A DNA stretch of 64,000 nt, taken from contig JAAILG010000001.1 of the NCBI GenBank assembly GCA_012026655.1, positions 1-64,000 of the forward strand, given 5' to 3'. Source of the DNA: Hydrolagus affinis (Eukaryota). Each line of letters begins with the position of its first letter. Positions within the stretch are counted from its first letter, which is position 1. The position numbers and the translations under genes are program-made. Under the pieces are notes generated by a model that saw nothing but the letters and a program-made list of their open reading frames with translations, did not search any database and had not been told where the DNA came from. Below are positions 3,938 through 25,319 of this stretch, in pieces.

Positions 3938-4029
3938 ATGCCGCAGTATGGTCAAGTTATTGTTATAAAGCGTACTGGAGCAGATGGGTACCATTTTCCT
4001 TTGACAGCACCTTCCTGCTTGTTTGGCAG
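3938..4029 (+). CDS. MKI67: MKI67 coding exon 1 (start codon; FHA N-term MPQYGQVIVIKRTGADGYHFPLTAPSCLFGR)
   Basis: ATG at 3938, donor GTAATA at 4030. Resembles human Ki-67 MWPTRRLVTIKRSGVDGPHFPLSLSTCLFGR. Confidence 0.95.
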
Positions 4030-7000
4030 GTAATAGTCAGCTGTGTTTACAAGCAATATTTTGTCTTACAAGTTAATTTAAGAGTTTGTGTGTCATGTTA
4101 ATCATTTGTGCTTTTATTTTTTAGGAAAATAGACTGTGACATCCGTATCCAACTGCCTCATGTTTCTAAAGAACACTGTAAGCTTGAAGTAAATGAAAAT
4201 AACGAGGTAACTTTTTTGGTATAATGATTTTGTTTACAGAATAATGGAAGGATACAAACAAAACTTGTTTGGTAATCTTCACTTTGCTTTGGTTAATTCT
4301 GCAGGTTATTCTATCTAACTTGAGTGACGTGAATCCGACTTCTTTGAATGGTAAAGTTATACTTCATTCTGAGCGTCTAAAGCATGGCGATGTATTCACT
4401 ATCATTGATCGCTCTTTCAGGTAAATGTGGAACATTTATATAAAACAACATGGAATTTTTTAGTTACAATACAATTTATATTTCTATAACTTTTTATATT
4501 GGCTGCAGTGATGAAGTACTGCATGTGCAATTACTGGCTGCATTGAACTACGCATATGCAGTGTAGTTTATAAAATCGGATTTTATCCTATGTATATAAG
4601 TTTGCCTGTAACTCGGACTTTGCGTAAGTTGTGTGAGTTTTACTGTTGTGCTTTATCACTTTGAAATGACTTGAAGCACATCACAATTATTACTGTAAAG
4701 TGTAGTAAACAAATTATTACAGCTTTTCTGAGTTTACAATATACAGGCACACTATCTATTTGGAGCATTTAGTGGACATTTCACAATTTAATTTTTTTTT
4801 CCTTTATGGTAGATTTGAATACCCCTTGGATTCGGGGCATTTCACCGACACAAGAATAAAGCGCAATTCATCAAGTCTGAAAAATGAAACTCTACAGGTA
4901 CTATATTTAAATTTGTATTGGCAATAATAATGTTTTCCTCATCTACTGGGTTAAAGCATCAATAAGTATTTTTGTGGCAGGCATGAGTTATGTTGTCTAT
5001 TAGATATGCTACCTAAATGTTAGATTGAAATAAAATACTGATCCTTACACTTGATATAATGTCTGATTAAGTCTGAATTGTCAAAGTGTGTTGAATTTAC
5101 CTATGTGTTTCAAATTGCCATTACCCACATCTTATTCAGGTAGAGTAGGGTCGTCCAACCTTTTTGCTGTTGAGGGCTAGTTGCCAGATTTGAGAAACAT
5201 CCATGGACCACATAAACAATAGTTTTTGTGTTTCCTCTCCAGAAACAATCTAAGAATTATATAGCAATGTTTTAAATTGTGTAACCGCACTACTTAATTT
5301 TACTATTTTAGTTGCATTGCAAAGTTTTGAATAGACAAATGAAAATTCATACAAATTTTAAAACAATAATACGCTTATGTACGTATACGCCAGAATAATC
5401 ATTAATTCCAGCTAAACCATGAAAGTAAAAGAAAATGCACATAATTTAATAGCCCTAACAATGAGCAAAATAATGATAATATCAATTGGAAATAATAACA
5501 CATCAAGTTAATTTTGGTGTATTTAAATCAAAACCTATGATATAACTCATCACATGGATGCCCCTACAGAGATTACTCAACAAAACTAAAACAGATTAAT
5601 CCATTCTTGTAAAACTAACAAAGGGGCAAAGTAATGATGCACTGAATATAGAAAGACTTTTTTTTAACAAAAATCAAGAGTAAACAAAACTGAGTTTGAA
5701 GTAGAGTGTATGTAAATTGGACATACTGTAATCAGAATCTTCTACTTGGCGAATATTTCCTGGACACTTAGAGACACATGAGAAAATTATTCCCAAAACT
5801 TTTTGAGCATAGTGATAAGTCTGAATCACCTCCTGTGACTGGCCTCTGGTTGGCTAGTCCTGTATTCAGGCAGGGAATTAAATCACCCTCAGGCTGGATA
5901 CCGGTCGCCATTTGGACCACCTTGTTGTAGAGCATATTTTACCATTAAAATTTCGTAAAGAACCCTCTGAAGGTGTAAACTTTTCGTAGCACATTACTGT
6001 AATCCTCTCAGTCCTAGTTTGGATATGAATTTTCAAAAATGAATAAACTGTTTCTCAGTTAACATGGTAATGTTTGAATTAACAGGTTCTTCATGTTCAA
6101 CAGGGAGGAGAGCATGGTGTGCAGCCTGCAAAGAATCGTTATTCTATAAGTGGACAAACTTCTGGTTGGTTGTGTTTTTTGTTTTGGGAAACGTACAGTA
6201 CTAATCAAAGATTTTCATCAGTAGTGGTAACCATAAACTTAAATATTGTGAGTCCTCTCTTTCCTAAAGCGTACTGGATTCTCAGACTGTTAAACCATAC
6301 ATCATGTTGCTGCAAGGATCCATCCTTGGCCCCCTTTCTCATTTACATACTTCCTAGTGATGTCATCTGTAGACACGGGGTTAACTTCCACATGTATGTG
6401 GAATGACAGCCAACTCTACCTTTCCACCTCCAGGAGTGACTTCCAATCCCCTAATGTTCTGTCAGCTTGCGCAACTTTGACTCTCACCTCCTCTCTCCAC
6501 CTAGCAGTACCCGCTCCCTCCGCTCTACTGAGTCAGGCCTCGTCCTTGTCCCCTAAAACCTCTGCTCCACCATCGGTGGCCGTGCTTTCAGCCACCACTC
6601 CCCAAAACTTTGGAACTCGCTCCCTCAACCCCTTCGTCTGCACCCCCTCCTTTCCCATCTTCAGGTCACACCTGAAGATTCTTCTCTTCAATCATGTTTA
6701 TGGTCACCTTCCCACTCCTCACTGGCTTGGCCTCGGGCTCCGCCACTTTGAAGCGCTCTGAGAAGTTACCCAGTGTGGAAAGCGCTATATAAATGTAAGT
6801 TGTTCCTCAATTACTGATTACAGCATAAAGTGGCAGCGTGGATTTTGTGACACTATTTTGCAATCTCACATATGCTGATCAATCATATTGATTTTCAAAG
6901 TATTACCAAAATTTTGCACAGTGTACATTAAGCAAGGAGTAGGAAGAATGCTTTAAATTGGCAGAAGGTCATGGTTGTGAAGAAGGGCTCATTGTGCAGT

Positions 7001-10000
7001 TTTCAGTTATCACTAGTTTGTTACAGGATTTAATTCATACAACCAATAATTATTCCTTTTTATATAGTGCCTTGTCACGTTGTCGAGATGTCTCACAGGA
7101 TATACTGCAAAGTGCATTTGAATTGATTCAGTAATTAAAAAGATATGTGTAATTGTGGATTATCGTCCCTTTTCTTAAAAATAAAAAGCTTGCATTTTGT
7201 GGTTTTCTTTAGATTCGGTGTGTGTGGATAGAGTCTTCAATGAGCCAATTAAACCTACAAAAGCTAAATCAGATAACTGGGAAGATGAAGCTCCAAAGAA
7301 GCAGCAAGGATGGAGCTCCGCAGATATCAAAGATGATCGACCAGCAGATAAGGAAGTCTCTCCTTTTTCTCATCTTTATGAAATGTGCAAGAACCAAGCT
7401 CTACACATGCATCAGAAAAAAACAAACCAAGCAAATATTGAATTGTCAACCCCCAAAAACACCAAGACAACAGAGAAACTTCTTGTATTGCCATCAGAAG
7501 AATCTAAAACCAATATTTTTCAAGGCAGAAAGAGTTCGAGGACACCATTAAGATCAAAGAGTATGGGCCAGGCTCCAGTGGAAGAAAGTAAACTGCCAAA
7601 AGAAGATGATTCTGATAAGGAAGTAATGAAGAATTTAGAGGCTTCATTAGTTCAGGATATTCCAAGTAAAGGTTTAGGAAAAACAGCTATTAATAAAAAT
7701 ACAACCCAAAAAAGGTGCAATTCTGTGGGATTAGGAGGATTTACAGAAAATCTCTCTTCAGAAAAAAACATTGTGTTGCTTGAATCTTCAAATGCAGGTG
7801 ATGTTCATGATAAAGCACAAAATGACCACCAAATCAATAAAGATACACCAAAATCTAAGAGAAAGAGTCATCTATTTACTATTCGAAAATCCTTAAATGC
7901 TGATGAAGTCCTGAAGGAAATTCATGATGGACTTGAGTCTTCAATGGGAAAAGAGCAAAGTATTGTTGAGGAAGGGAAATTAGCTGAAAATGATAATACA
8001 TCAGTTCATGTTGCAGAGAAAAAAATATCTGAAACACCCAAGCGGTGTGGCAGACCATCGTTGCGATTCAGTCAAATAAAGGTTACAGAAATGCAAACAG
8101 ATCAACCTCAGTTTGAAACTTCAGAGCCAATAACAGGTGTAAAATCACCTGCAGGTGCAAAAGGAAAAGGGAATTTTTTCTCTTCGCCACCTCTGCTGAA
8201 TGGAAAAGGAGAAGATGGTGCCCCTGAAAACATGATTGAAGTTGAGAGCTTAAAGAAAATGAGTCGGCGATCTAAAAACCCACATAAATTCTTGACTAAT
8301 GAAGAGACTGAAGAAGTACCGTTCTTTGGGAAACAAATGAATAAGTCTTTGGTTGGTGTAGAACCTGATGATTCTTTGACCAGTAATAAACTATCACCTT
8401 CGCTCCAAGGTAAGGTCAAGTTCTTTGGGAACTAGAGATCACAGTATGGTTGATATGGAGCAAACTGATGCAGGATATCCTTGAAGCTGAGCTGGCTCCA
8501 AAGTGTATGGCAATGGAATGTCCAAATTAAGCCAACCTTCTGCGGTAGTCTTGTTAGTCCAGTTCCTGAGCCAGGCTGGCTCGTTGGCAGGACTTGGAAG
8601 GTCAGACTTGTCACTGGGGGCAGAGGATTCTTCCCACTCTGTTAACCCTGCAAGTGAAAACCCCAATCAGTAGGGTGGTCTTAACTGAAAGTTTGCCAGA
8701 TCTTGCTGGCAAACTAAGTGGTTTTGGCTGGTTAAACTCTACTATTACCCAAATGTACATTCTTAAGGTATCCAAAGCTTGAACTCTTACCATCCTGCGT
8801 CTAAACTTTCTGAAATTAGGTAAACAGGATGTGTCCCTCCAGGAAGAGAGTGCACATTCTATTCCATTAAATATCTGGAAGTTGAGCTTTTCATTTGGAA
8901 TTTCTATGTATCTGGGATACATGGAACTTATTTGGTTTGGATACTCTAGCACAAAGATGGGTTTCTGCATGTGAAAAAACATTGTTTCAGTAAATTCACT
9001 CTAAAATAATTTTTTCTTTTAAGTTTTATTAACTCAATTGTTTAAATTTAATTACCGTACGGCCATACTCTTGTATTGTGAATCAAATTGTATTATTTAA
9101 TTATTTCCTGTTAGGTGCGGTATCGGGTTCATCCAGAAAACGCAGAAGTGAAAACCTAGAAAAAAAGGTCTATGAACCAGCTTCTAAGCAAAAGCGAGTT
9201 TCTTTTGGTATAAACCTGTGTCCTGAAGTATTTGACAAACACATGCCACCAAATTCTCCACTTCGAAAAGGAGGCACTCCAAGAAGATTCGGCACTCCAT
9301 TTAGAGTTTCTGCAAAAATAGCATTGAAGCATGCTTTGAATATCGGACTACAATATTGTGAGGTTAGTATGCATGTCAGTCAAACTTTGGCACCCCATGG
9401 TATAATAATGAATAGCTATCATGCAACAACTAACTAGCATGATAAAGTGCTGTATCAAATGCAAGGATTATTATTATTGTAAGTAGTATATCTGAGCCTT
9501 TATAGGGTTGCCAGTTTTACCTTTAGCAGTAAATTACTAAATATATGGTGTTATCTACTGTGACAAATTTCTGTTGTGGATGCCACATGGTAATGTTTGC
9601 ATAGCACCATCCTATGGTTCGAATTGGATACTACAATATAAAATCAATAATATGGTTTGCTAACAGTGTCACCTGGTGGAAACAATCCAATACTGCGGAT
9701 TGTTTTGGAAGTGGAAGCCCGTTCCATAGCATCCTTCCAGAATACTCTCGCTAATGTCCTTCCATCAATGCATAAAGTTAGACTTTGAATGTGTCCATCT
9801 TTCTGTTGACCTGTTCCAATTGTTAATTACCCACTGATAAAATAAGCACTTCCTAGTGTTCATTCTGAAATTGCCTTTTGCAACTCTACAACAACAACAA
9901 AATTGCACTTATATAGCACTTTTCACATCAGGAGGATGTGCCAAAGCGCTGAACAGTTAGGTCAGGACCCAAGCGGGTCGGGGTAGGGGGAAGGAGATGG

Positions 10001-13000
10001 GAGAGAGGGAAGAGTTAGTGGGGCAGCTGAAGGCACAGTCAAAGAGGAAGGTCTTGAGACCAGCCTTGAAGGAGGAAGGGGACAGGCGGGCTGATAGGGA
10101 AACAGTAGGTCAGAGAGATAGGTGGGGGCAACTCTAAACCTATATCCGCTTGTAATGCTATATTGATGCATTCCTAAATTATTCTGGGTTTAGTTTTTAA
10201 TTTCATGTAAAGTTTTATATACCTCTTCATCCCCTCAGATGTTTTCTTTGTCCAATAAGTTAAACAAGGTACAATAGCTTTTAGCCTGTAATGGTCCTGA
10301 ATGTTTCAGGAAATTGCAGAAGATTTTACCTTATTTACTTATTTACTCACATATAATTTGTAGGCAGAATATATGGTTTGAGTGGGAAAAGGAACTTTAC
10401 TTCAATTTTAAGTGAATTTTACATCATTCATAGAGTTCACAGAAAAAGTTGCTTGACTTAACAATTGCAATTATTTTCTTGTTTTTAAAAAGGAATTAAC
10501 TGAACCATGCAAAAGAAGCTCAAAGTTATCTGGTGCCTCTCCAGCCAGATCACCAACTGCAAGAAGCCCTGCACTGGGCAGAGTGTCTCCAGGTGCCAAG
10601 ATCCCCTCCCCAGGCAGGAAGTCACTGACTGCCAAGACTCCCTCCCCAGGTAGAAAGTCACTGGCAGCTCAGAGTCCCTCACCGGAAAGGAATTCACTGG
10701 TTGCCAAGACCCCCTCACCGAGCAGGAAGTCACTGGTTGCCAAGACCCCCTCACCGAGCAGGAAATCACTGGCTGCCAAGAGTCCCTCCCCAGGTAGGAA
10801 GTCACTGGCAGCTCAGAGTCCCTCTCCAGAAANNNNNNNNNNNNNNNNNNNNNNNNNNNNNNNNNNNNNNNNNNNNNNNNNNNNNNNNNNNNNNNNNNNN
10901 NNNNNNNNNNNNNNNNNNNNNNNNNNNNNNNNCCAGGCAGGAAATCACTGGGTGCCAAGACCCCCTCCCCAGGCAGGAAGTCACTGGGTGCCAAGACCCC
11001 CTCCCCAGGCAGGAAATCACTGGGTGCCAAGACCCCCTCCCCGGGCAGGAACTCACTGGGTGCCAAGACCCCCTCCCTGGGCAGGAAGTCACTGACTGCC
11101 AAGAGCCCCTCCCCGGGCAGGAAGTCACTGACTGCCAAGAGCCCCTCCCCGGGCAGGAAGTCACTGGGTGCCAAGACCCTCTCCCCGGGCAGGAAGTCAT
11201 TGGGTGCCAAGAGCCCCTCCGCAGGCAGAAAGTCACTGGGTGTCGAGAGCCCCTCGCCGGGCAGGAAGTCACTGGCTGCCAAGAGCCTCTCTCCAGACAG
11301 GAAGTCATTTACTTCACCAGTCATCAAAAAATCACGTGCAAGCGGACCATTCTCGATCAAGGTATCAGCTACCTTGTCAGCTAAGAGTCCACGTTCTGCC
11401 AAAATGCCCTCTTTATCAGATACCAAGAAGTCTCCTGCAAAGAAATTATCTTCTACAAAGAAATCCTCTCCATCTGCTGCCAAGCAGTTGGCTCGGTCAG
11501 CTTCCTTGGGATCCTTTGATCGTTCATCTTCTGTTCGTGGACGATTCTCTGTCTCTCGTATTAAAACACCTCCTATTCTGTTGATTAAATCGGATTCTCC
11601 CCAAGTTTCGCTAGCTTCTGCATCATCCGAGTTGAAGCAACATCAGCAGACAACAAACAAACCATCAAATTTCAAAAAGACTCCTTCCCGAAAAAGTGCA
11701 AGAAGGAGTTCTTCTCTTGCAGCAGGATTATATTCCAGGAGGCAAAGTGGAGCTTCAGTTGCTAACTTATTAGGTAGGATCATTTCTGGATATTTCATTA
11801 AATATGTATCCATCTATTTATAACCATATCTATGACCATGGATAAAAAGAGTAGCAAATAAGACAAGCAATAACTCAGTGGTTAGAGCAGTCGCATTGCA
11901 AGCGAGAGGACCGATTCCTGGGCATGGTGAAATGTTGGGCAAGTTTCCTTACTCAAAACACCTCTTCAACTAGCAGAAAGTAGGAACCTGGTTGTTAGTT
12001 GATTGGCAGATCGCTTTTCCGGTGGTAATCCCTCCAAAATGATGATGATAATTTGGTCACTCAATCCACGACTGGGATGTGGCTGTGCAATTGGTTGCAG
12101 GGTTTCACCCACCAAATATACAGTCAATTCAATTTACAGTATATTCTGCGAAGCGCACTGAGACATCTTGACAATGTGAAACAGCAGTATATCAAACGCA
12201 AGGATTATTATTTATTATTGTAGAAGAGTGATGGGACATGTGTTGTGGATAGATTGATTAATTATATGGTGAATTGTTCTCTTGTGTTCTTGAGTTATTG
12301 ATTTAAACTTAGCTATTTTTATTTTAGTGAAAAAATCATGGGCACAGGTGGTGAAGGAGGGAGTGGCAAAGTCTGAATTCCGATCTGCTCCGAAGAAGCA
12401 TGGTATGATTCAAAGACGGATTAAGAAGAATTTGTCTTCAAACATTCCAAAGGTTTGTGTAGTATTTAATGGATCATATTGCATAAAATACTATTTAAAG
12501 GGGAAGAATACTTCTAAATACTTCAAAATACTAATATTTCACTTTCATGTATAATATTATCGTGGGTAAGAAATATTTGGTAAGGCAGATGTATTTTGGA
12601 CTGAAGCTATTTACTGGATCAGGACAAATCATTAAGGTTTTCAAATGGGTCTCAAGCCCAAAAAGGTTGAGGACCACTGCTCTAAATCCTTTTTTCCCCT
12701 TTTGATATGTGCTGGAAGGTGCTAAAATAAATTATTTATATGTTTCAAACTAAAAGCTTGTTTGTTTGAAAATCTAGACTTAGCCAAGTGGTATAGGAAT
12801 AACTAACTATTTGTAAAGTTTACTTCTATAAATCTGATTACAAACTTATAACAGTTATTAAATATGACGTTTTATGTTCCACTTTTCATTGCAAGTGAAA
12901 TGGAGGTCTCAGCAACTTGGGACATACTCCTGACATGAAAGACGCCACACAGATGTAATGTTGTTTTGTATTGCAATGGTTTTAGTATCACTTTCATGTA

Positions 13001-16000
13001 ATGTTTATATCTTAACAGACACCCATTAGATCAATGAAAGACCATTATAGTACTGGGCATGCTGCTTCCCCAGCAACAATCATCATTGGCAAAGCACAGG
13101 CTACTATTGTTAAAACAACTGGAATACCTCCACGCATAGTGACAAATGTTTCACTCAGACGTAAAAGCCTAGCAATGGATCAAAGTTTTACAGGTAATCT
13201 AGAGATTTATACATCTTGACATTCATCTGTTTTAGATATCCATTTTCAAGTTTAAGCTGTTGAAAGTTTACCCACATATTTATATTTATAACTGAGTTGT
13301 GATTGTACATGAAATTGATACACTTGTTATTGATACTGCTTGTTATTAATAAACACATATCATATTCGATAGGTGTGGCTGAATTGTTCACGACTCCCAT
13401 GAAGAAAAATCAAAGAGCAAGTACAAGACCATGTATCTCAAATGATGTCGGAAGTTCTCAAGATATCACACACACTCAAGTATCCCAGAATTCATTTGAA
13501 GGCTCAGTTATCAAAACGCTTGAAGAAACTGGTTGGTGTAAAATCACTTTCCATTGTATTGTTTGGTTTGCCATTTATTCTTTTTTGCAGTTACAAATAT
13601 AGCCTTAAATGCCACTGCTGTCCTGACAGAATGTCTATCAGACATCAAGTCTTGGATGAGAGCTAACTCTCCAGTTGAACGTCAATGAGACTGAAGCCCC
13701 GTCAGCGCCTCAGGCACTGACAGCATCACCATCCAAGAATGCACATTCCACCTATTAAGCCTGCCTCACGTCCCCCACCTTGCCCGCCACATCATTGGCG
13801 GGTGAGTCTTCTGCTACCCTGTGCCCACCCTCGAGCTCCATCTTGCGGTCCCTCCTTTGCCTCCTCCAAGCCCTGACTCAAGATCCTCATGTTCGACCAT
13901 GCCCCTGGGTCACCCTGCTTCCTGACCCCCAGCTTGGGTTGATTGTCCAGCGCCTTGGGACGTCCTCCCGACATGAAAGGCAACATACAAATGTAATTTT
14001 GTTGTAGTTCTCTCGCTTTTAAAGCCCATTAAAACATTCATGAAGGTGTAATATCTACACTTGAATTTGTAATTTGCATTTTTAGATTGTAGAGCATTAG
14101 ATGACCATTCTAGTTTTGGCACAATATTTAGACCTGAATCACAGGTCACATAGAATACCATCAATTTCCTTTCTTAATAGTTTGAATTGAACTGTCTTAT
14201 TTTTTTGTAGGAGAAAACACAAGAGATTATTCTCTTAACTTGTTTTGTAGCTGCATAAAATTCCCAAATAGTGCTTGAGTATTGATAAAAAAAATTCTAA
14301 GGAATTAAATATTTCCATGCCTCAGTCACTTCTTGCTTTTTTTTTGTTCTGTTAATATTCTGATCATTTATGATTTTGCAATTTGTTTTAGGTGAACTGG
14401 TCATCTCACCATTAACTGCTCCGGGGAGAGCAAGAAGAACATCTACAGGTTCACCAATGTGCAGAGCTGATTTGTCTTCTAACCCAAAAGAGCTGCATGC
14501 AAAACAAGCAAATATTCCAAAAGTAGTAGAGGAACCAACTGATGATCTAGCGAGTGGATGTACATTATTAACAACCCCCAAAGAAAAGACCAAACCAGTG
14601 GTAGAGTTGAACAGACCATTGAAAACTCCCAAAGTAAAAGGGATACCAGTGGTTGATATAAAAGAAATTATGAAAACTCCAAAAATAAAGAGGGGCCAAG
14701 TGGAAGATTTTGCAGGACAACAAAAAGTGATGGCTGAATTGAAACAAAAAGCTAAAAGTCCTGAGGTTAATTATGTAGGAGTTAAAGAAATGTTTCATAC
14801 AACAAAAGAGATGGAAACTGCTGATTACAGTGGCTTGGGTGAAATGTTCTCTAGTCCTAAAAGAACTAATGAGGCTGTTGAGTCTGAGCTGCTGCAAAGC
14901 TCAAACAGGAGTGGGAGGAAGAGAGCAACAGGCTCATCATTCACATTTGAAAATGCCGAGTGTGAGGATGGACAGAGAGTTGATTCAAAGAAATCTGAAA
15001 CCAAATTGATCAATAAAATGGAGCAGCATGAAAAGGAACAATCAGTAACAAAAGCAGCCCCCAGACGAAGTGGCAGAAACTCGTTTTCGACACTTGGAAT
15101 TAAGGTAAAACAAGCTTGCAGAAACGCTGATTGAAAAGTTAGACTTAGTCACATGGTGTAAGAATAACTTCATAACTGTAAATGAAATGCTTATAAGGTC
15201 TACCGCATGCCAGGAATTTGAACAGACCCCAAAGTGAGAATTTAAATTTTTATGTATCCTTATCTATTTCCTCCTTCACCTTGTACTATGTCTGTGTTGT
15301 CTTTGTATTGCTATTGTTAGACTGTATGACCTGCTGGCAAAGTCCCAAGAGTCCAATTGTCTGAACTTTTCCCTACTATTTGACCTTTCTGAGATAGGAT
15401 AGATGAGATCAGATGGGCTGCAGGGCCTTCGTCATGTGAATCTTTTGTAAGCTTATGTTGAGAAGACCAGGGGCATGCTCACTTTCTGAAATTCACTAAT
15501 TTTGCTATTGTCTGTCTTCTATTACTTTCATAGGCTGCCCACATTTCCAATTGTTTATCTTTAGCTGGGGACCAATTTATTTCTAGTTACAGCTGCAATT
15601 TGGGCTGGATTGAAGAATTGACTGCAAAAAACAATGGTGAACAAAACTTGCACTGATTTTTAAAAAAAAGTGCTTTCATGCCATGATCCCATGCATATTA
15701 CATGTTATTTAAATGATCAATCAAAATGCTAAGACTTATTAGATCAAAATTCATTTTTTTCTAAATGCTGTCCTTTGCAGTTTGATGTTTTAACAATTTA
15801 ATTGTATTTATTTCGGTTTTAATATCTTCCTTGAATCCTTCAAATGGGCCTCTGTTTCTAGCTTTACTGCAAATCTTTATTTCTGAATATTTTTGTTTTA
15901 TTAGCTAACTACAATGCAAGATCAAGATAAGAATACAATGTCGCCTCCATTTTCCAATAAAGAATGTGCACAGCCGTCAAATCAGCTTGAAACTACACAT

Positions 16001-19000
16001 GCATTTTCCAAGCATGATGATGTTGGTATGTTTTTTCAGCCAGTTTAGATTGTGAATTACTATAAATTTTTCATCAAGTGATCTGTTGGTATATTTATGA
16101 AATTAAAACGATATCCAGATATGAGAATTTGATTGTGAGACTATCTGGGAGATGCTCTTGTACCATTGAGAGAGATTTCTTAGTGTTTTCTTTTCGGATT
16201 CAAGCAGTCATTTTGTTCATATAACTAATGACCATACAAGGAACCCAGTATTCAAATCCAACTGAAGTGTTAGTGTCCCCAATGATGTTTTGTGTGGTAT
16301 TGTCATCAAGTCTGTAGTTCAGCTGTGTAAGAATTGATTTAAATTCATGACCCTTAGGTGAAGTAAGGACTGACTCAAATGTTGTACAATTAATATGCAT
16401 GTTTATTAATTCAGGTTAGTAATAGTTATAAGTAATTAAAAGTATTTATCACAGCTTGCGTATCGATGCATAGCTCACTGTGATTTAAGTTGACCAAACC
16501 AAATGCTGTGGGAGGGATAGAGTAGCATGTCCAATTTAATCTCCATATTAATCCAAATATAAATCTATCAAAAGATATCCAAGTATAGTTGTACGGTTTC
16601 CAGTTCGATTTCCGAAAGTTTCCAAGTATTATTATGCTATTCCCAATTCGATATACAAGTACCACTGTACATCTAGAGTTGCTCCACTCAAAGTCTTGAT
16701 CTTCCCATTCTTCTGAAGCTGGAACATGGATTCGCGACTCCATAAGTTCAAATTTCTCCTTTCTCCAGCTTCTTCCTCGAAGGTTTATCCAGTTCATTAG
16801 ATGACCTTTCACAATCTAATGACATTTCATTAGATTGTCCTTTGCAAGATGATTCCTGTGCAAAAACAAATGCAGCACAACTCCCTCTCCAGCTACAGAC
16901 CATTTCTCCATGAGAAAATTACTCATAAGAACTGAAAACAGTTTGTTGATATTAAAGTCTTTTGTTTCTTCCGCAAAGCTAGTCACAACCAGCTCTTATC
17001 ATGTGCAATTGATTACATATGTCTCATATGTGTATATCGCTAATATAATTTGAGATATTATTTAACACATTCATTACGGAATACTACACCAGTATTCAAT
17101 CCAACTAAAGTCTTAGTGTCCCCAATGATGTTTTGTCGTCAAGTCTAGTTTAGCTGGACAAAGGCAGGAATGGGTCAAATTTAATTTGACATGTTCCTTA
17201 ACCACAAACTGGCCTGTTCTCAAGTATTGCAAAGGTTGCTACCTGAAATCTTTTATGAAACTATGCTGTTTGAAACTGTCTTTTTAAAAAAGTTTAGTTT
17301 GAAGTCCTTTTCACTAGAATAAGATATTGTTTAAAAGCTAATTACTGTAGTTATGTACCAGTAAAAACAATTAACTTATAACGTGCACTTTTTTTATTTC
17401 CTTCTAGTTGAGCTTATGGATTCTGGTGTATCTACACAAGAAGGCTCTGACATGCTTGAGAAATCTCAAAACATCAGTAGAGTGCCAATTATCGGTACAC
17501 CAACAAAAGTGTTTCTACAAAGGAAAGATGAATTAAAACAGCCAGAAGTAAAGAAGGATGAGAAATATGTCCAAATATTACTGGAGAATTATGAAAAGAA
17601 TGCGAAATGTAGTGTAGTCGAGAGATTCGAATCTAAAAATGTGCAGACTGAAGTAAACAAGTTGACATCACCAACACAGAAATCGTTAAAAGAGAAGAAT
17701 GAGCCTGAAAATGTTCAAGGAAGTGCCGTGGAAGAATTGCCATTATCACATGAGAGCATTGCAACAGATGTGGGTATAGTTGGTTATAGTGAAGTAAAAT
17801 TAGATTCACCAACCAGGAGATCATTGAAAGTGCAAAATGTTATCCAAAATTCTCAAACAACTGCATTAAAGGAATTGTCTGCCACAATAAAAAATGCCAT
17901 ACCAGACACGAAAGAGCCTCAAGGGAGACACATTAAAGAAGTCAAATTGACTACACCAAAAAGGAGATCATTAAGGAACAAGAATGAATATGAAAGTGAT
18001 CGAGAAGTTAAAGTGGAAGAATTACTAGCCCCAAAAAAGACCGTCACTCCAGACAAGAAGGGGTCTTGGGATCAACAAACTGAAGAAATAAGTCAGTTAG
18101 TTTCACCGTCATTAAAATTTAGGGAAAAGAGCAAATTCCAAATCCTGGAAGATACTGAAGTGAAAGAATTGCTAATTCCCAACAAGGCTATTACACCAAA
18201 CAAGAAAGAGTCTCAAGATGGAGAAACTGAGGATATAAATGATTTGGTGCCACAAACCCGAAGAACACTGAGCGGAAAGGATGAAAATCTGTATACATGG
18301 AAAAGAGGGACTCAAGATGCACCAGTTGAGTTAACAGAGTTTCCTGTAGCTGTAACTAGAGCACAAAGAGGAAGACCTGCCAAAAAGGCGGTGAATTCTC
18401 CAATTTCCCTTGTGTTGAAAGAATCTGGAAATCTAGAGGGTGAAAATAGTGATGAAATTTCTAATACAAATGATGCATTAATAAAGCAGGAAAAGGGGAA
18501 AGACAACATATTTTGTGAGCCAGAGGAGTTGTCTGAAAAGGACAAACCAGATGAAAATGTCAATGAAGGTGTACTGGCAATGAATGAGTATGAAAAGGTT
18601 ACTCAAGACATTCAATCTGATTCAAATCTTCCACCCAAAAAGAAAATGCCCAGAGGGAAGGCTGCACAGAAAGAAATTGAAAATAAGGGGAAAAATCTAA
18701 AAGAAGTTAAAGTGCAAGAATTGCTGCCTTCGGGTCAACAAACTGAAGAAATGAGTCAATTAGTTTCACCATCAATAAAATTGAGGGGAAAGAGCAAACT
18801 CCCAAACCTTCAAGACACTGAAGTGAAAGAATTGCTAATACCCAACAAGACTGATACACCTGACAAGAAGGCGTCTCAAGCTGGACAACCTGAAGATATC
18901 ATTGATTTGGTGCCACAAACCCGAAGAACACTGAGAGGGAAGAATGCTAATGTTGTGGATCTACAAGAATATTATGCTGCAACAAAGAGTACCTCATCAA

Positions 19001-22000
19001 GAAATGATCCCCATGCTGGACAAATTGAAGAAGTGAATAAATCATTTATGCTAGAATCCAAATTAATAATGGAGGGTAATGAAGCACAGAATCCCCCAGA
19101 ATTTGAGGTAGTAAAAAGTCTAGTTGCTTCAGCACTAAACACAAAAGATGAAAGCGAAGCCCAAGCTCCACAGGTTGATGAATTAGTGGATTTAACTTCA
19201 AGGAAGAAGGAAACTCACAATGTCCAAGTGGAAGTGACAGATTCATCTGCTGCAGCAAAAACCTCCACACAAGGCAAGAGAAATCAAGTTCCACAAGTCA
19301 AGAAAACATCAAATTTAACTTCACGGAAGAGATTGCAAAGAGGAAAGAACAAAATTGACAATGGTGAGGTATCCGAGGTAGAGAAAAATCAGTGCGTCTC
19401 ATTCGAGATGTCCATACAAGGCACAGAAACTAAACATTCTCCAGGACCAGACATACACAAATCCAATACAACAGCAAAAAAATCAAGAGGAAAAAATGCA
19501 AATGTCGACAAGGCTGAAGAAAAAAATACGACTAGCCAAGGAAACATGTATACACGGAAAAGAGGGACTCAGGATGCACCAGTTGAGGATGATCAGGAAT
19601 TGTTTAGCTCAGAAAATGAATTAAAGGATCAGCAAGAAGATGATTGCAAAGTTGAAGTCTCTTCTAGTCAAAAGCAATGCACAAAAGAAGATTCAGCCAC
19701 TTCCAAATCTAGGTCTCTACGAGGAAAGAGAACAAATAAAGAACCCCCTAATGGAGAACTAAAACCCTCTCCTGATTTAGCAAAAAAATCACAAAAAGGA
19801 AGAATCCAAAAAGTGGAAGAAATATGCTTGAAGAGAATTGTACACTGGGATCCCAAATTAGAACCAGTCTGTGCATTAGAATCAGTACAAGGGGCAAGTG
19901 ACGTGACTGAGTTTTCTGTAGCCGTAACTAGAGCGCGAAGCAGAAGACCTGCACGGAAGGCAGTGAATTCTACAATTTCACCTGTGTTGAAAGAATGTGG
20001 AAAAACAGAGAGTGTAAATGGTGACGGAATTTGTAATACAAACAATGCTTTTGTTTTAATAAAGCAGGAAAAGGGAAAATCCGAAGAGAAAGACCACATA
20101 TTTTGTGAGCCAGAGTTGTCTGAAAATGACAAAAATGCTGAAAATGTCAATGAAGGTGTACTGGCAATGGATGAGCATGAAAAAGTTACTCAATGCATTC
20201 AATCTGATTTCAATCTTCCACCTAATAAGAAAGTGCCCAGAGAGAGGGCTGTGCTGAAAAAAGTTCAAAATAAGGGGAAAAATCTGAAAGAGATTAATTT
20301 AAGAAAATCACAAAGAAACAAACCTGAAGAGAACATGAGTGCAACTGCAGGAAAAGTACTGCATATGACTGCTGAAGAGAAAGAAGAATCTCCGTTGCCA
20401 GAAAGGAGGTTGACAAAAGGAAATGGTTCAGTAGTTATGAATAAGAGGGATAAACGATCAAAGGAATCCCCGGTTGAAACATCAGGGCAAACTGAACCTC
20501 AAGTAGATTTAACTGCAGTTGATGTTGAATTATGTGCTGTGACTGAAGAGTTGTCTACACATGCAGAAATACATAAAGAACTAGGAAAATCTAAGAAAAT
20601 GAAAATGCTGCCATCACAGGGGGATGATGAAATCAAAGTCATTCAACCGAGGCGAAACACAAGAACAGCGAAATCTACAATGGCGATTGCAAAGGAATGC
20701 GTGGTGGAAGATGATTGTGCTGCCGATCCTGTTGTGCAAATTATAGAAGAGTCTTTTGAGGTGATTTTAAATGAATCTGTTCCAGCTAAGAAAGAAAAGG
20801 CAGAGAAAACCAAATCTTATAATAAACACGGTAAAAGAAAAATGGAGGATGCTGCAATAGTTCTGCAAGAGGTGAACGAGGGAGGTCTAAAAGATCCTAT
20901 TTCAAAGGATGAAGAACTTGATATCCCTGTCAGGACCTCCAGAAGAGGTGGCCGTGGAACAGTTAAAAATAATCCGGTGATTGCAATCAAGGCGAACGTG
21001 AATATAACTGAAAATGAGTGCAACGTACAGAATTTGGCTAATGCAGCAGAAAACTACAAAGGAACCAGAAGAGGAAATGCTTCCAAAAAGGCAGCTATTG
21101 TTCCAGTTGTTCAAGTAGAAGAAGCTGAGCCAATTAAAAGGATGGGAAAGAAATCCAAACTTGAAATACAAATGAGTGGTTACCAGAATATCCAACTGAA
21201 GACCAGTGGGGCAGAGGATAAATGTGAAGATCATCAAGCTGACCTTCCCTCAGATAAAGTTTCAAAACCAGCCAAGAGGATGACGAGAGCTAATAAAGCA
21301 CGTGGTGTTCCTGATATGGTAGAGGAATCTCTTCAGTTGTCAGCTGAAACATCACTTACATCGGCATCCCAAAGCAGTTCAAAAAGTAATCTGAAAGGAA
21401 AGCGTGCTGCTACAGAAACTGAAGATACTGTAGCTTTTAAAAAGGCCAAAACAAAAGGTAAGGAAACACTCATGTGGCCCTAGAATGTTCGTTGCAGATT
21501 TCAAAATAAATCAATAATAGTAATTGGCTTACAATTCGCAATTAGATTTTTTTGTCAAAGCTGGATTGTGATTTTATTGTTGGTCACTAAAGTACGCAGA
21601 TGTTTGTGTTTGACTTATTGTGTACAGTTGGAATAAAAATTATTTAAAAATTTTAAACCATTGATTTACAATTTGGACATTCATAATATAATATGCATTT
21701 GGTATCGCGCCTTATCACTTCTTCGAGATATCTCAAAGCACTTCACAGAATACACTGTAAGGTGAATTGACTATATTTTGTAGGTAAAACACTGCAGCCA
21801 CATGTGTACAAGCCGTGAATTGAGTCACCAAATTATTGTTATTTTGATCTGAAATCCTATTGGTGTTTCTTTAACTTTATAGAAGCAGTCGTTGGGAAGA
21901 TGACTACCTGTACTAGAAAAATGAAGACTGCAATGAGTACTAAAGAAAGGAGTCCTGAAGCCACAAAACCTCAAGCCAGACGAACTAGATATACAACTAG

Positions 22001-24821: not shown

Positions 24822-25319
24822 TAGGCCCGTCGATATGGGAAATTTCCGATATGGATATATCGGTTGGCTCATATCGATATATNNNNNNNNNNNNNNNNNN
24901 NNNNNNNNNNNNNNNNNNNNNNNNNNNNNNNNNNNNNNNNNNNNNNNNNNNNNNNNNNNNNNNNNNNNNNNNNNNNNNNNNNCCCTCTCCCCCCCCCCCC
25001 CCTGTCTCTCCCTCCCTCTCCCCCCACCCCTTGTATACCTGTATATTGTATTCGAGGACTACGACTACAATATGGCGGCTTGCATCTCGGTCTGTGCATT
25101 CTGTAGAGATGAGCATTCTGGGTCTTGTAGTTCAGTGCGCGCGCATTCGTATGTACGCGCGCATTCCATGCTCTACGCCCAGGAGGTTGCAATGCCGACG
25201 ACAGGGTACCGATATTTTTTTAATCGAATTTTTCGATATATCAATATATTTTAAATTCCGATATCGGCATATTGATATGAAAATTATATCGGATATAACC
25301 GATATACCGACGGGCCCTA
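24822..25319. mobile_element. Young non-autonomous hAT transposon (MITE)
   Basis: TIRs TAGG(G)CCCGTCG(A/G)TAT / ATACCGACGGGCCCTA. Perfect 8-bp TSD CACTCAAT (24814-24821, 25320-25327). Many subterminal CGATAT/ATATCG motifs with intact CpGs. Confidence 0.9.
24883..24982. other. Assembly gap (100 N placeholder)
   Basis: Run of 100 N inside the hAT MITE, next to a poly-C tract. Confidence 0.99.

Follow-up and report, generated by a model that had tools for sequence, protein, structure and literature searches.

The window analysed in this study, a stretch of 64,000 nucleotides (64 kb) from Hydrolagus affinis, contains a complete-looking mki67 gene on the + strand, whose 16 exon blocks align to the Ki-67 protein of Callorhinchus milii with 62–97% identity. 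Three features expected of a vertebrate Ki-67 were found: an N-terminal FHA domain (Pfam FHA on two exons), in exons that are 87–97% identical to C. milii Ki-67 aa 1–97; an RVxF and a KiR-SLiM for PP1 binding, in agreement with the motif given in the available part of PMC5005033; and, beyond the PP1 motif, the conserved domain, which reads RRQSGASVANLL-VKKSWAQVV across the 11773/12328 splice. The features relevant to this study are as follows.

3938 to 4420, + strand: mki67 exons 1–3 (3938–4029, about 4125–4206, and 4305–4420) with the FHA domain (Pfam FHA, exons 2 and 3).
9115 to 9362, + strand: PP1-docking exon, with RVSF at 9195–9206 and the KiR-SLiM (Pfam PF15276, E 1.7e-16).
10493 to 11773, + strand: array exon; after the array come the RGRFS motif and the first part of the conserved domain (RRQSGASVANLL), and the exon was identified by tblastn to C. 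milii aa 563–1029.
10559 to 10594, + strand: degenerate in-register unit ARSPALGRVSPG ahead of the array, with S-P in place of the array's S-L.
10595 to 10832, + strand: left part of the array, six complete 12-aa units and a part-unit (TRF and in-register reading).
10833 to 10932, no strand: 100-N assembly gap within the array, with a true length of 29+36k nt if the frame is intact.
10933 to 11313, + strand: right part of the array, a part-unit and 10 complete units (TRF and in-register reading).
12328 to 12452, + strand: exon finishing the conserved domain (VKKSWAQVVKEG), placed by homology and by the loose end of a spliced contig, which matches the exon start.
14392 to 15104, + strand: separate exon, 77% identical to C. 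milii aa 1173–1415, in which a few Ki-67-motif-like units occur, all short and diverged.

The PP1-docking exon has AG/GT ends and a phase 0 donor, and the array exon follows it as the next exon, in phase. A relative's RNA-like contig shows the donor of the array exon at 11773 spliced to the exon that follows, and the acceptor at 10493 is predicted from sequence and homology. The introns at 9440–9478, 9888–10100, and 11874–12170 hold very high-copy interspersed repeats, probably of the SINE type, with a depth of up to millions in a relative's contigs. A second 100-N assembly gap, with palindrome-like GATATC-rich flanks, lies downstream of mki67 at 24883–24982.

The array of 12-aa units that the earlier note had described after the PP1-docking exon was confirmed as 16 complete units and two part-units at 10595–11313, beginning 34 codons into the exon, and the count of at least 17 copies was borne out by 17 visible R(K/N)S(L/F) cores. 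TRF reported period-36 tandem arrays at 10594–10829 (6.6 copies) and 10936–11307 (10.3 copies); the complete units, with the consensus AKTPSPGRKSLx, lie at 10595–10810 and 10954–11313 and keep an exact 36-nt register in 16 of 16 cases. As the part-units flanking the gap differ from each other at position 7, the frame is intact only if the gap measures 29+36k nt, which brings the array to at least 18 units (20 if the gap is 101 nt long).

The same note had placed a CDK site and an Aurora/PKA-type site in almost every unit. This holds for the full S/T-P-x-K/R site (14 of 16 complete units), for a second S/T-P (13 of 16), and for R-x-S-L/F (all 16, with RKS-L/F in 14), whereas the PKA part is weak: PKA favours Arg at −3, the residue at −3 of the RKS serine is mostly Gly, and PKA was rejected as the main kinase. 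Each unit contributes a charge of about +3 and two S/T-P sites. The visible array of 206 residues contains 46 K/R, 4 D/E, and 29 S/T-P at a net charge of +42, so that CDK phosphorylation alone would reverse the charge, to about −16.

The array is single-copy in the genome (two matches, both at the mki67 locus), and an assembly artefact was rejected because the array is also present in C. milii and in contigs of relatives. It does not arise by chance, since the array score of the C. milii spacer is 147 and 20 shuffles of that spacer reach at most 7. The array is a low-complexity coding minisatellite with a 36-nt period; it extends the segment that separates the PP1 motif of chimaera Ki-67 from its conserved domain.

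Two further observations concern the rest of this exon. Compared with a relative's contig and the C. milii protein, the exon in the window is 84 nt (28 codons) shorter, in frame, at 10531–10547. After the array, at 11533–11550, there is a short G(R/C)FS motif (RGRFSVSRI in the window), which is found in 61 of 67 scorable orthologs and is a predicted further basophilic site; no description of it was found in the parts of the Ki-67 literature covered. Homologs of the post-array part of the exon were not found among 3083 candidates, a search limited to 2000 aa and thus weak evidence.

The closest counterpart is the orthologous gene of C. milii (RefSeq XP_007894292 and XP_007894299), in which the 12-aa unit is alike, with 11 of 12 residues identical, and stands at an equal position. 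The C. milii protein differs in its count of RKS cores, 19 or 22 according to the model, in 28 more residues before the array, and in mostly having Ala at position 12 of the unit, where the window's unit has Gly; one late C. milii unit has S-P in register. Its most positive 100-aa window (+26) begins at aa 707, inside the array, which is the densest positive charge of the protein at this window size, and the array holds 37 of the 91 S/T-P sites and 16 of the 33 full CDK sites.

The earlier note had asked for a comparison across chondrichthyans and other vertebrates. A search with the PP1 exon returned 346 proteins at E ≤0.001, and the best 150 of these 346, together with one Takifugu protein, were examined; 67 of the 151 were scorable, as the PP1 motif and the conserved-domain motif could both be located, and the remaining 84 were fragments, probable Repo-Man proteins, or sequences in which a motif was unmatched. 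With a tandem array called at a spacer score of at least 20 (shuffles of five spacers reach at most 7), S/T-P, K/R-rich arrays were found in the spacer between the PP1 motif and the conserved domain in 27 of the 67 orthologs, C. milii included, with periods of 9–28 aa; the spacers of the 67 are 105–1712 aa long. The spacer is net positive in all 67, at 0.055–0.243 per residue. Spacers with arrays exceed those without in both median charge per residue (0.188 vs. 0.132) and S/T-P per 100 aa (12.1 vs. 6.8).

Species were assigned to 31 orthologs, 20 of which were chosen after the scores had been seen, so that they are not a random sample; placental mammals are absent from the 31. Arrays are present in many fishes and amphibians, namely C. 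milii, Takifugu, Coregonus, Silurus, Latimeria, and all 12 named amphibians, and in the turtle Chrysemys. Among the same 31, no array was found in the sharks and rays Chiloscyllium, Heterodontus, and Hemitrygon, or in ten others, namely Cottoperca, Megalops, five lizards, a boa, a bird, and a marsupial. The array is therefore not needed.

The arrays of Xenopus tropicalis, Hyla, Latimeria, Takifugu, and Rhinatrema resemble that of the chimaera in occupying the equal spacer and in being basic and rich in CDK sites, but their periods are 9–28 aa and their cores usually read (K/R)(K/R)S-P, where the chimaera has RKS-L. Judged by their sequences, the arrays of other vertebrates are probably separate amplifications. 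In-register 12-mers of Hyla and Latimeria have 8 of 12 residues in common with the chimaera unit, above 100 of 100 shuffles, although these 12-mers were chosen post hoc and the shuffling disrupts S-P pairs, which makes the control lenient. The Takifugu Ki-67 records vary in the copy number of a 17-aa unit from about 1.5 to 10, through assembly, isoform, or polymorphism. Very long spacers (819–1712 aa, net +114 to +231) occur in amphibians and one other protein, the longest in the caecilian Rhinatrema. Genome or chromosome size as the driver of spacer length was rejected (rho 0.35, P 0.07, n=27 named orthologs); in amphibians alone, rho against the size of the gene-bearing contig, a crude proxy uncorrected for kinship, was 0.2 (n=11).

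The position of the array allows a comparison with a functionally characterized part of human Ki-67. According to the available part of a preprint (bioRxiv 10.1101/2023.11.23.568026), the human charged patch (aa 496–681) fills the interval between the PP1 motif and the conserved domain; when it is deleted, or when its 37 K/R are mutated, condensation and the clustering of chromosomes at mitotic exit are both blocked, and reverting its 10 phosphomimetic sites to wild type partly restores them. The same source reports that clustering by the patch needs RNA, that the patch is active once dephosphorylated, and that its positive charge is said to be conserved in frog and zebrafish. Other sources, also available in part, describe the patch as an anchor of Ki-67 to the nucleolus (PMC13144362) and Ki-67 condensation as being under CDK control (PMC10562473). 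The chimaera array lies between the same two landmarks, and the equivalent of the charged patch would begin in the PP1-docking exon 9115–9362 and end in the exon 12328–12452. The human patch and the chimaera spacer occupy an equal place, and both are net positive, phosphorylatable, and disordered by composition. They differ in size and regularity: the human patch has 186 aa with 37 K/R and no tandem array described in the available part of the preprint, and the chimaera spacer extends about 480 aa beyond the PP1 motif, with a net charge of +83 in C. milii and about 20 near-identical units.

By analogy with the human protein, we consider it probable that the array is an enlarged charged patch under the control of CDK1 and PP1. 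The suggestion of the earlier note, a strongly basic and multi-phosphorylatable charge switch beside the PP1 site, is thereby supported as a prediction and maps onto the human patch, as far as the available part of the preprint describes it. In early mitosis, CDK1 would neutralise the positive charge of the array. At anaphase, if the chimaera protein behaves as human Ki-67 does, PP1 on the adjacent motif, with PP2A-B55, would strip the phosphates; at mitotic exit the re-exposed basic array would co-condense with RNA, and chromosome surfaces would coalesce. The 10 phosphosite rows listed for Xenopus embryo Ki-67 all fall outside the spacer between S376 and S866 (PMC10562473 supplementary file 4, at the 27 of 91 'ki67' places covered), an absence that says little, as trypsin cuts such arrays very short (nearly all peptides of the chimaera array would have 1–6 aa).

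The array may alternatively be a nearly neutral minisatellite expansion that was tolerated in a disordered exon, adding charge and sites with no selected function, a serious possibility that we nevertheless regard as somewhat unlikely. The patchy presence of arrays, with their wide range of periods (9–28 aa) and spacer lengths (105–1712 aa), is consistent with such an expansion, as are the variable copy number (19 vs. 22 cores between C. milii models, and the Takifugu records) and the lack of a significant link to gene-bearing chromosome size (figures given above). Of the steps that separate the units, 13 are synonymous and 16 non-synonymous (omega about 0.5, P 0.06), which points weakly to purifying selection among them but is non-significant as a test of selection. 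Conversely, the 36-nt register is exact in 16 of 16 units, 11 of 12 unit residues are retained in C. milii, and array spacers are all basic and rich in S/T-P, denser than array-free spacers in both charge (0.188 vs. 0.132) and S/T-P (12.1 vs. 6.8). Neutral expansion is compatible with a region that still serves as a charged patch, and these explanations are not all exclusive.

The component that separates the chimaera array from the others is the RKS-L site. With the exact Aurora consensus taken as a basic residue at −2 and no Pro at +1, the array offers such a site in every unit, as R-x-S-L/F is present in 16 of 16. The spacer of C. milii has 18 [RK][RK][ST]-hydrophobic sites and each of the 66 other orthologs at most 5; by motif content, an Aurora-type RKS-L site in each unit thus appears peculiar to chimaeras in the 67-ortholog sample. 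A seed of the form [KR][ST]P[ST]Px[KR][KR][ST]x occurs in 16 of the 66 other orthologs, its last residue being P in 9, T in 4, S in 2, and L in 1, and the degenerate unit before the array has S-P in register, as in the seed. In 14 of 16 units Leu is encoded by CTG, which a single transition separates from CCG, and a CCG-to-CTG-type change is also seen at position 6 of one unit. The simplest origin we infer is one founder Pro-to-Leu change in the widespread seed (K/R)-(S/T)-P-(S/T)-P-x-(K/R)-(K/R)-S-P, followed by amplification. The site in every unit is likely a by-product of these two steps and may be an amplified accident.

A more demanding proposal is that RKS-L is a selected Aurora B input, which would place the patch under two kinases and release it as Aurora B quits the chromosomes at anaphase. 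The R and the S never vary among the 16 units, L or F always follows the S, and the 18 sites of C. milii against at most 5 in the 66 others also speak for it. However, all 16 units encode this serine by TCA, identical at the silent position too, so that the invariance is no proof of selection at the protein level; R and K do double duty in the CDK site, the CDK sites by themselves would neutralise the unit, and other lineages have S-P at this position. The available parts of the literature add that Aurora B prefers basic motifs (PMC5874294) and phosphorylates the serine of the neighbouring RVxF motif in human Ki-67 (PMC5005033). On balance, a selected Aurora B input seems unlikely.

The earlier note further proposed that the array may stand in for the mammalian repeat region in perichromosomal-layer or phase behaviour; in such a case it would serve as the long phosphorylated brush. 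The Ki-67 repeat (KI67R, PF08065; 122-aa unit) and the array are both tandem, CDK-site bearing, and contained in one exon of the Ki-67 gene, and they differ in position, length, and sequence; the note's distinction between the two stands, as searches of both halves of the array exon at E 0.1 yielded no Pfam family. The proposed role was not supported: in the available part of 10.1101/2023.11.23.568026, clustering was unaffected when the human repeats were deleted and the patch was required for it, and the gene in the window has a separate, weak KI67R region (match at 14622–14801, E 0.012, 16.6 bits, below the Pfam cut-off of 32.4). Since the array takes the position of the human charged patch, it reads as an expanded patch and not as a stand-in for the repeats. 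The short and weak repeat region of the chimaera would suit a replacement, and the array, which accounts for some 40% of all S/T-P in C. milii Ki-67, may bear part of the mitotic charge reversal; nonetheless, it lies N-terminal to the conserved domain, which is the wrong position, a 1349-codon exon downstream can serve as a spacer, and Takifugu has an array and Pfam KI67R repeats together, which makes a replacement very unlikely.

The 1349-codon exon itself matched no Pfam family and contains long internal duplications unrelated to the Ki-67 motif, with offsets of about 221, 526–529, and 419 aa (18091–18271 with about 18754–18934; 18478–18706 with about 20056–20293; 18301–18331 with about 19558). 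The SPKK/SPRK repeats of H1 tails and sperm histones likewise consist of S-P-x-basic units whose charge is neutralised by CDKs. The array core is S-P-G-R-K in place of S-P-K/R-K/R, and on this comparison the likeness appears compositional.

Expression data from relatives bear on whether the array enters the protein. The RNA support is thin: two raw RNA runs from one sample of a relative placed 4 reads within the array and 9 elsewhere in the exon, in one orientation throughout and with none in the flanking introns, and an RNA-like contig set of another relative covers array units; the junction between the PP1 exon and the array exon was found in no read or contig of these data (4 + 9 reads and one contig set). 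An isoform that skips the array may exist. That the array is mostly spliced out of the main mRNA is extremely improbable: the contig depth in one relative's RNA-like run does fall, from about 100 at 11537–11773 to about 10 within the array, with no coverage of the 270 nt that open the exon, but 3' bias, divergence, and repeat collapse can explain this drop, the window has no AG at the depth break point, and all three C. milii protein models retain the array (19, 19, and 22 RKS cores).

Concerning novelty, the earlier note had allowed that the array might be an already described general feature of fish Ki-67. Arrays are indeed common in the Ki-67 of non-mammalian vertebrates (27 of 67 scorable orthologs), but no paper describing tandem arrays in this spacer was found, subscription papers being outside the scope of the search. 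For Callorhinchus Ki-67 repeats only unrelated papers matched, and for Ki-67 combined with SPKK and histone H1 repeats none was found. The available parts of the review PMC8354752 and of PMC4841783 and PMC4032110 treat only Ki-67-motif repeats. The C. milii array sequences are already in RefSeq; moreover, a repeat finder was run on ghost shark Ki-67, among others, in a preprint available in part (10.64898/2026.06.18.733134), whose Table 1 or supplements may list the chimaera repeat. The chimaera array is thus best described as a variant of the known charged-patch module, and its by-product is the observation that this exon was amplified in many vertebrate lineages.

The human charged patch matters as the switch by which Ki-67 stops repelling chromosomes and begins to attract them. 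Tandem versions of it that are nearly perfect are ready-made model polymers with fixed charge and site spacing and variable copy number, and the chimaera version adds a different kinase motif. With them, the contributions of total charge, site density, and kinase identity to the switch become testable. The chimaera array by itself is a modest variation, and the vertebrate-wide pattern is more useful. Carefully put, the charged-patch exon could be a recurrent hot spot in which vertebrate lineages each amplified their own basic, CDK-switchable units, with patch sizes of about 105 to 1700 residues as the outcome, and in which chimaeras alone swapped one CDK site per unit for an Aurora B site, a reading that we hold as tentative and, as a whole, rather unlikely. 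If true, it would provide a natural series linking patch size and kinase wiring to chromosome clustering.
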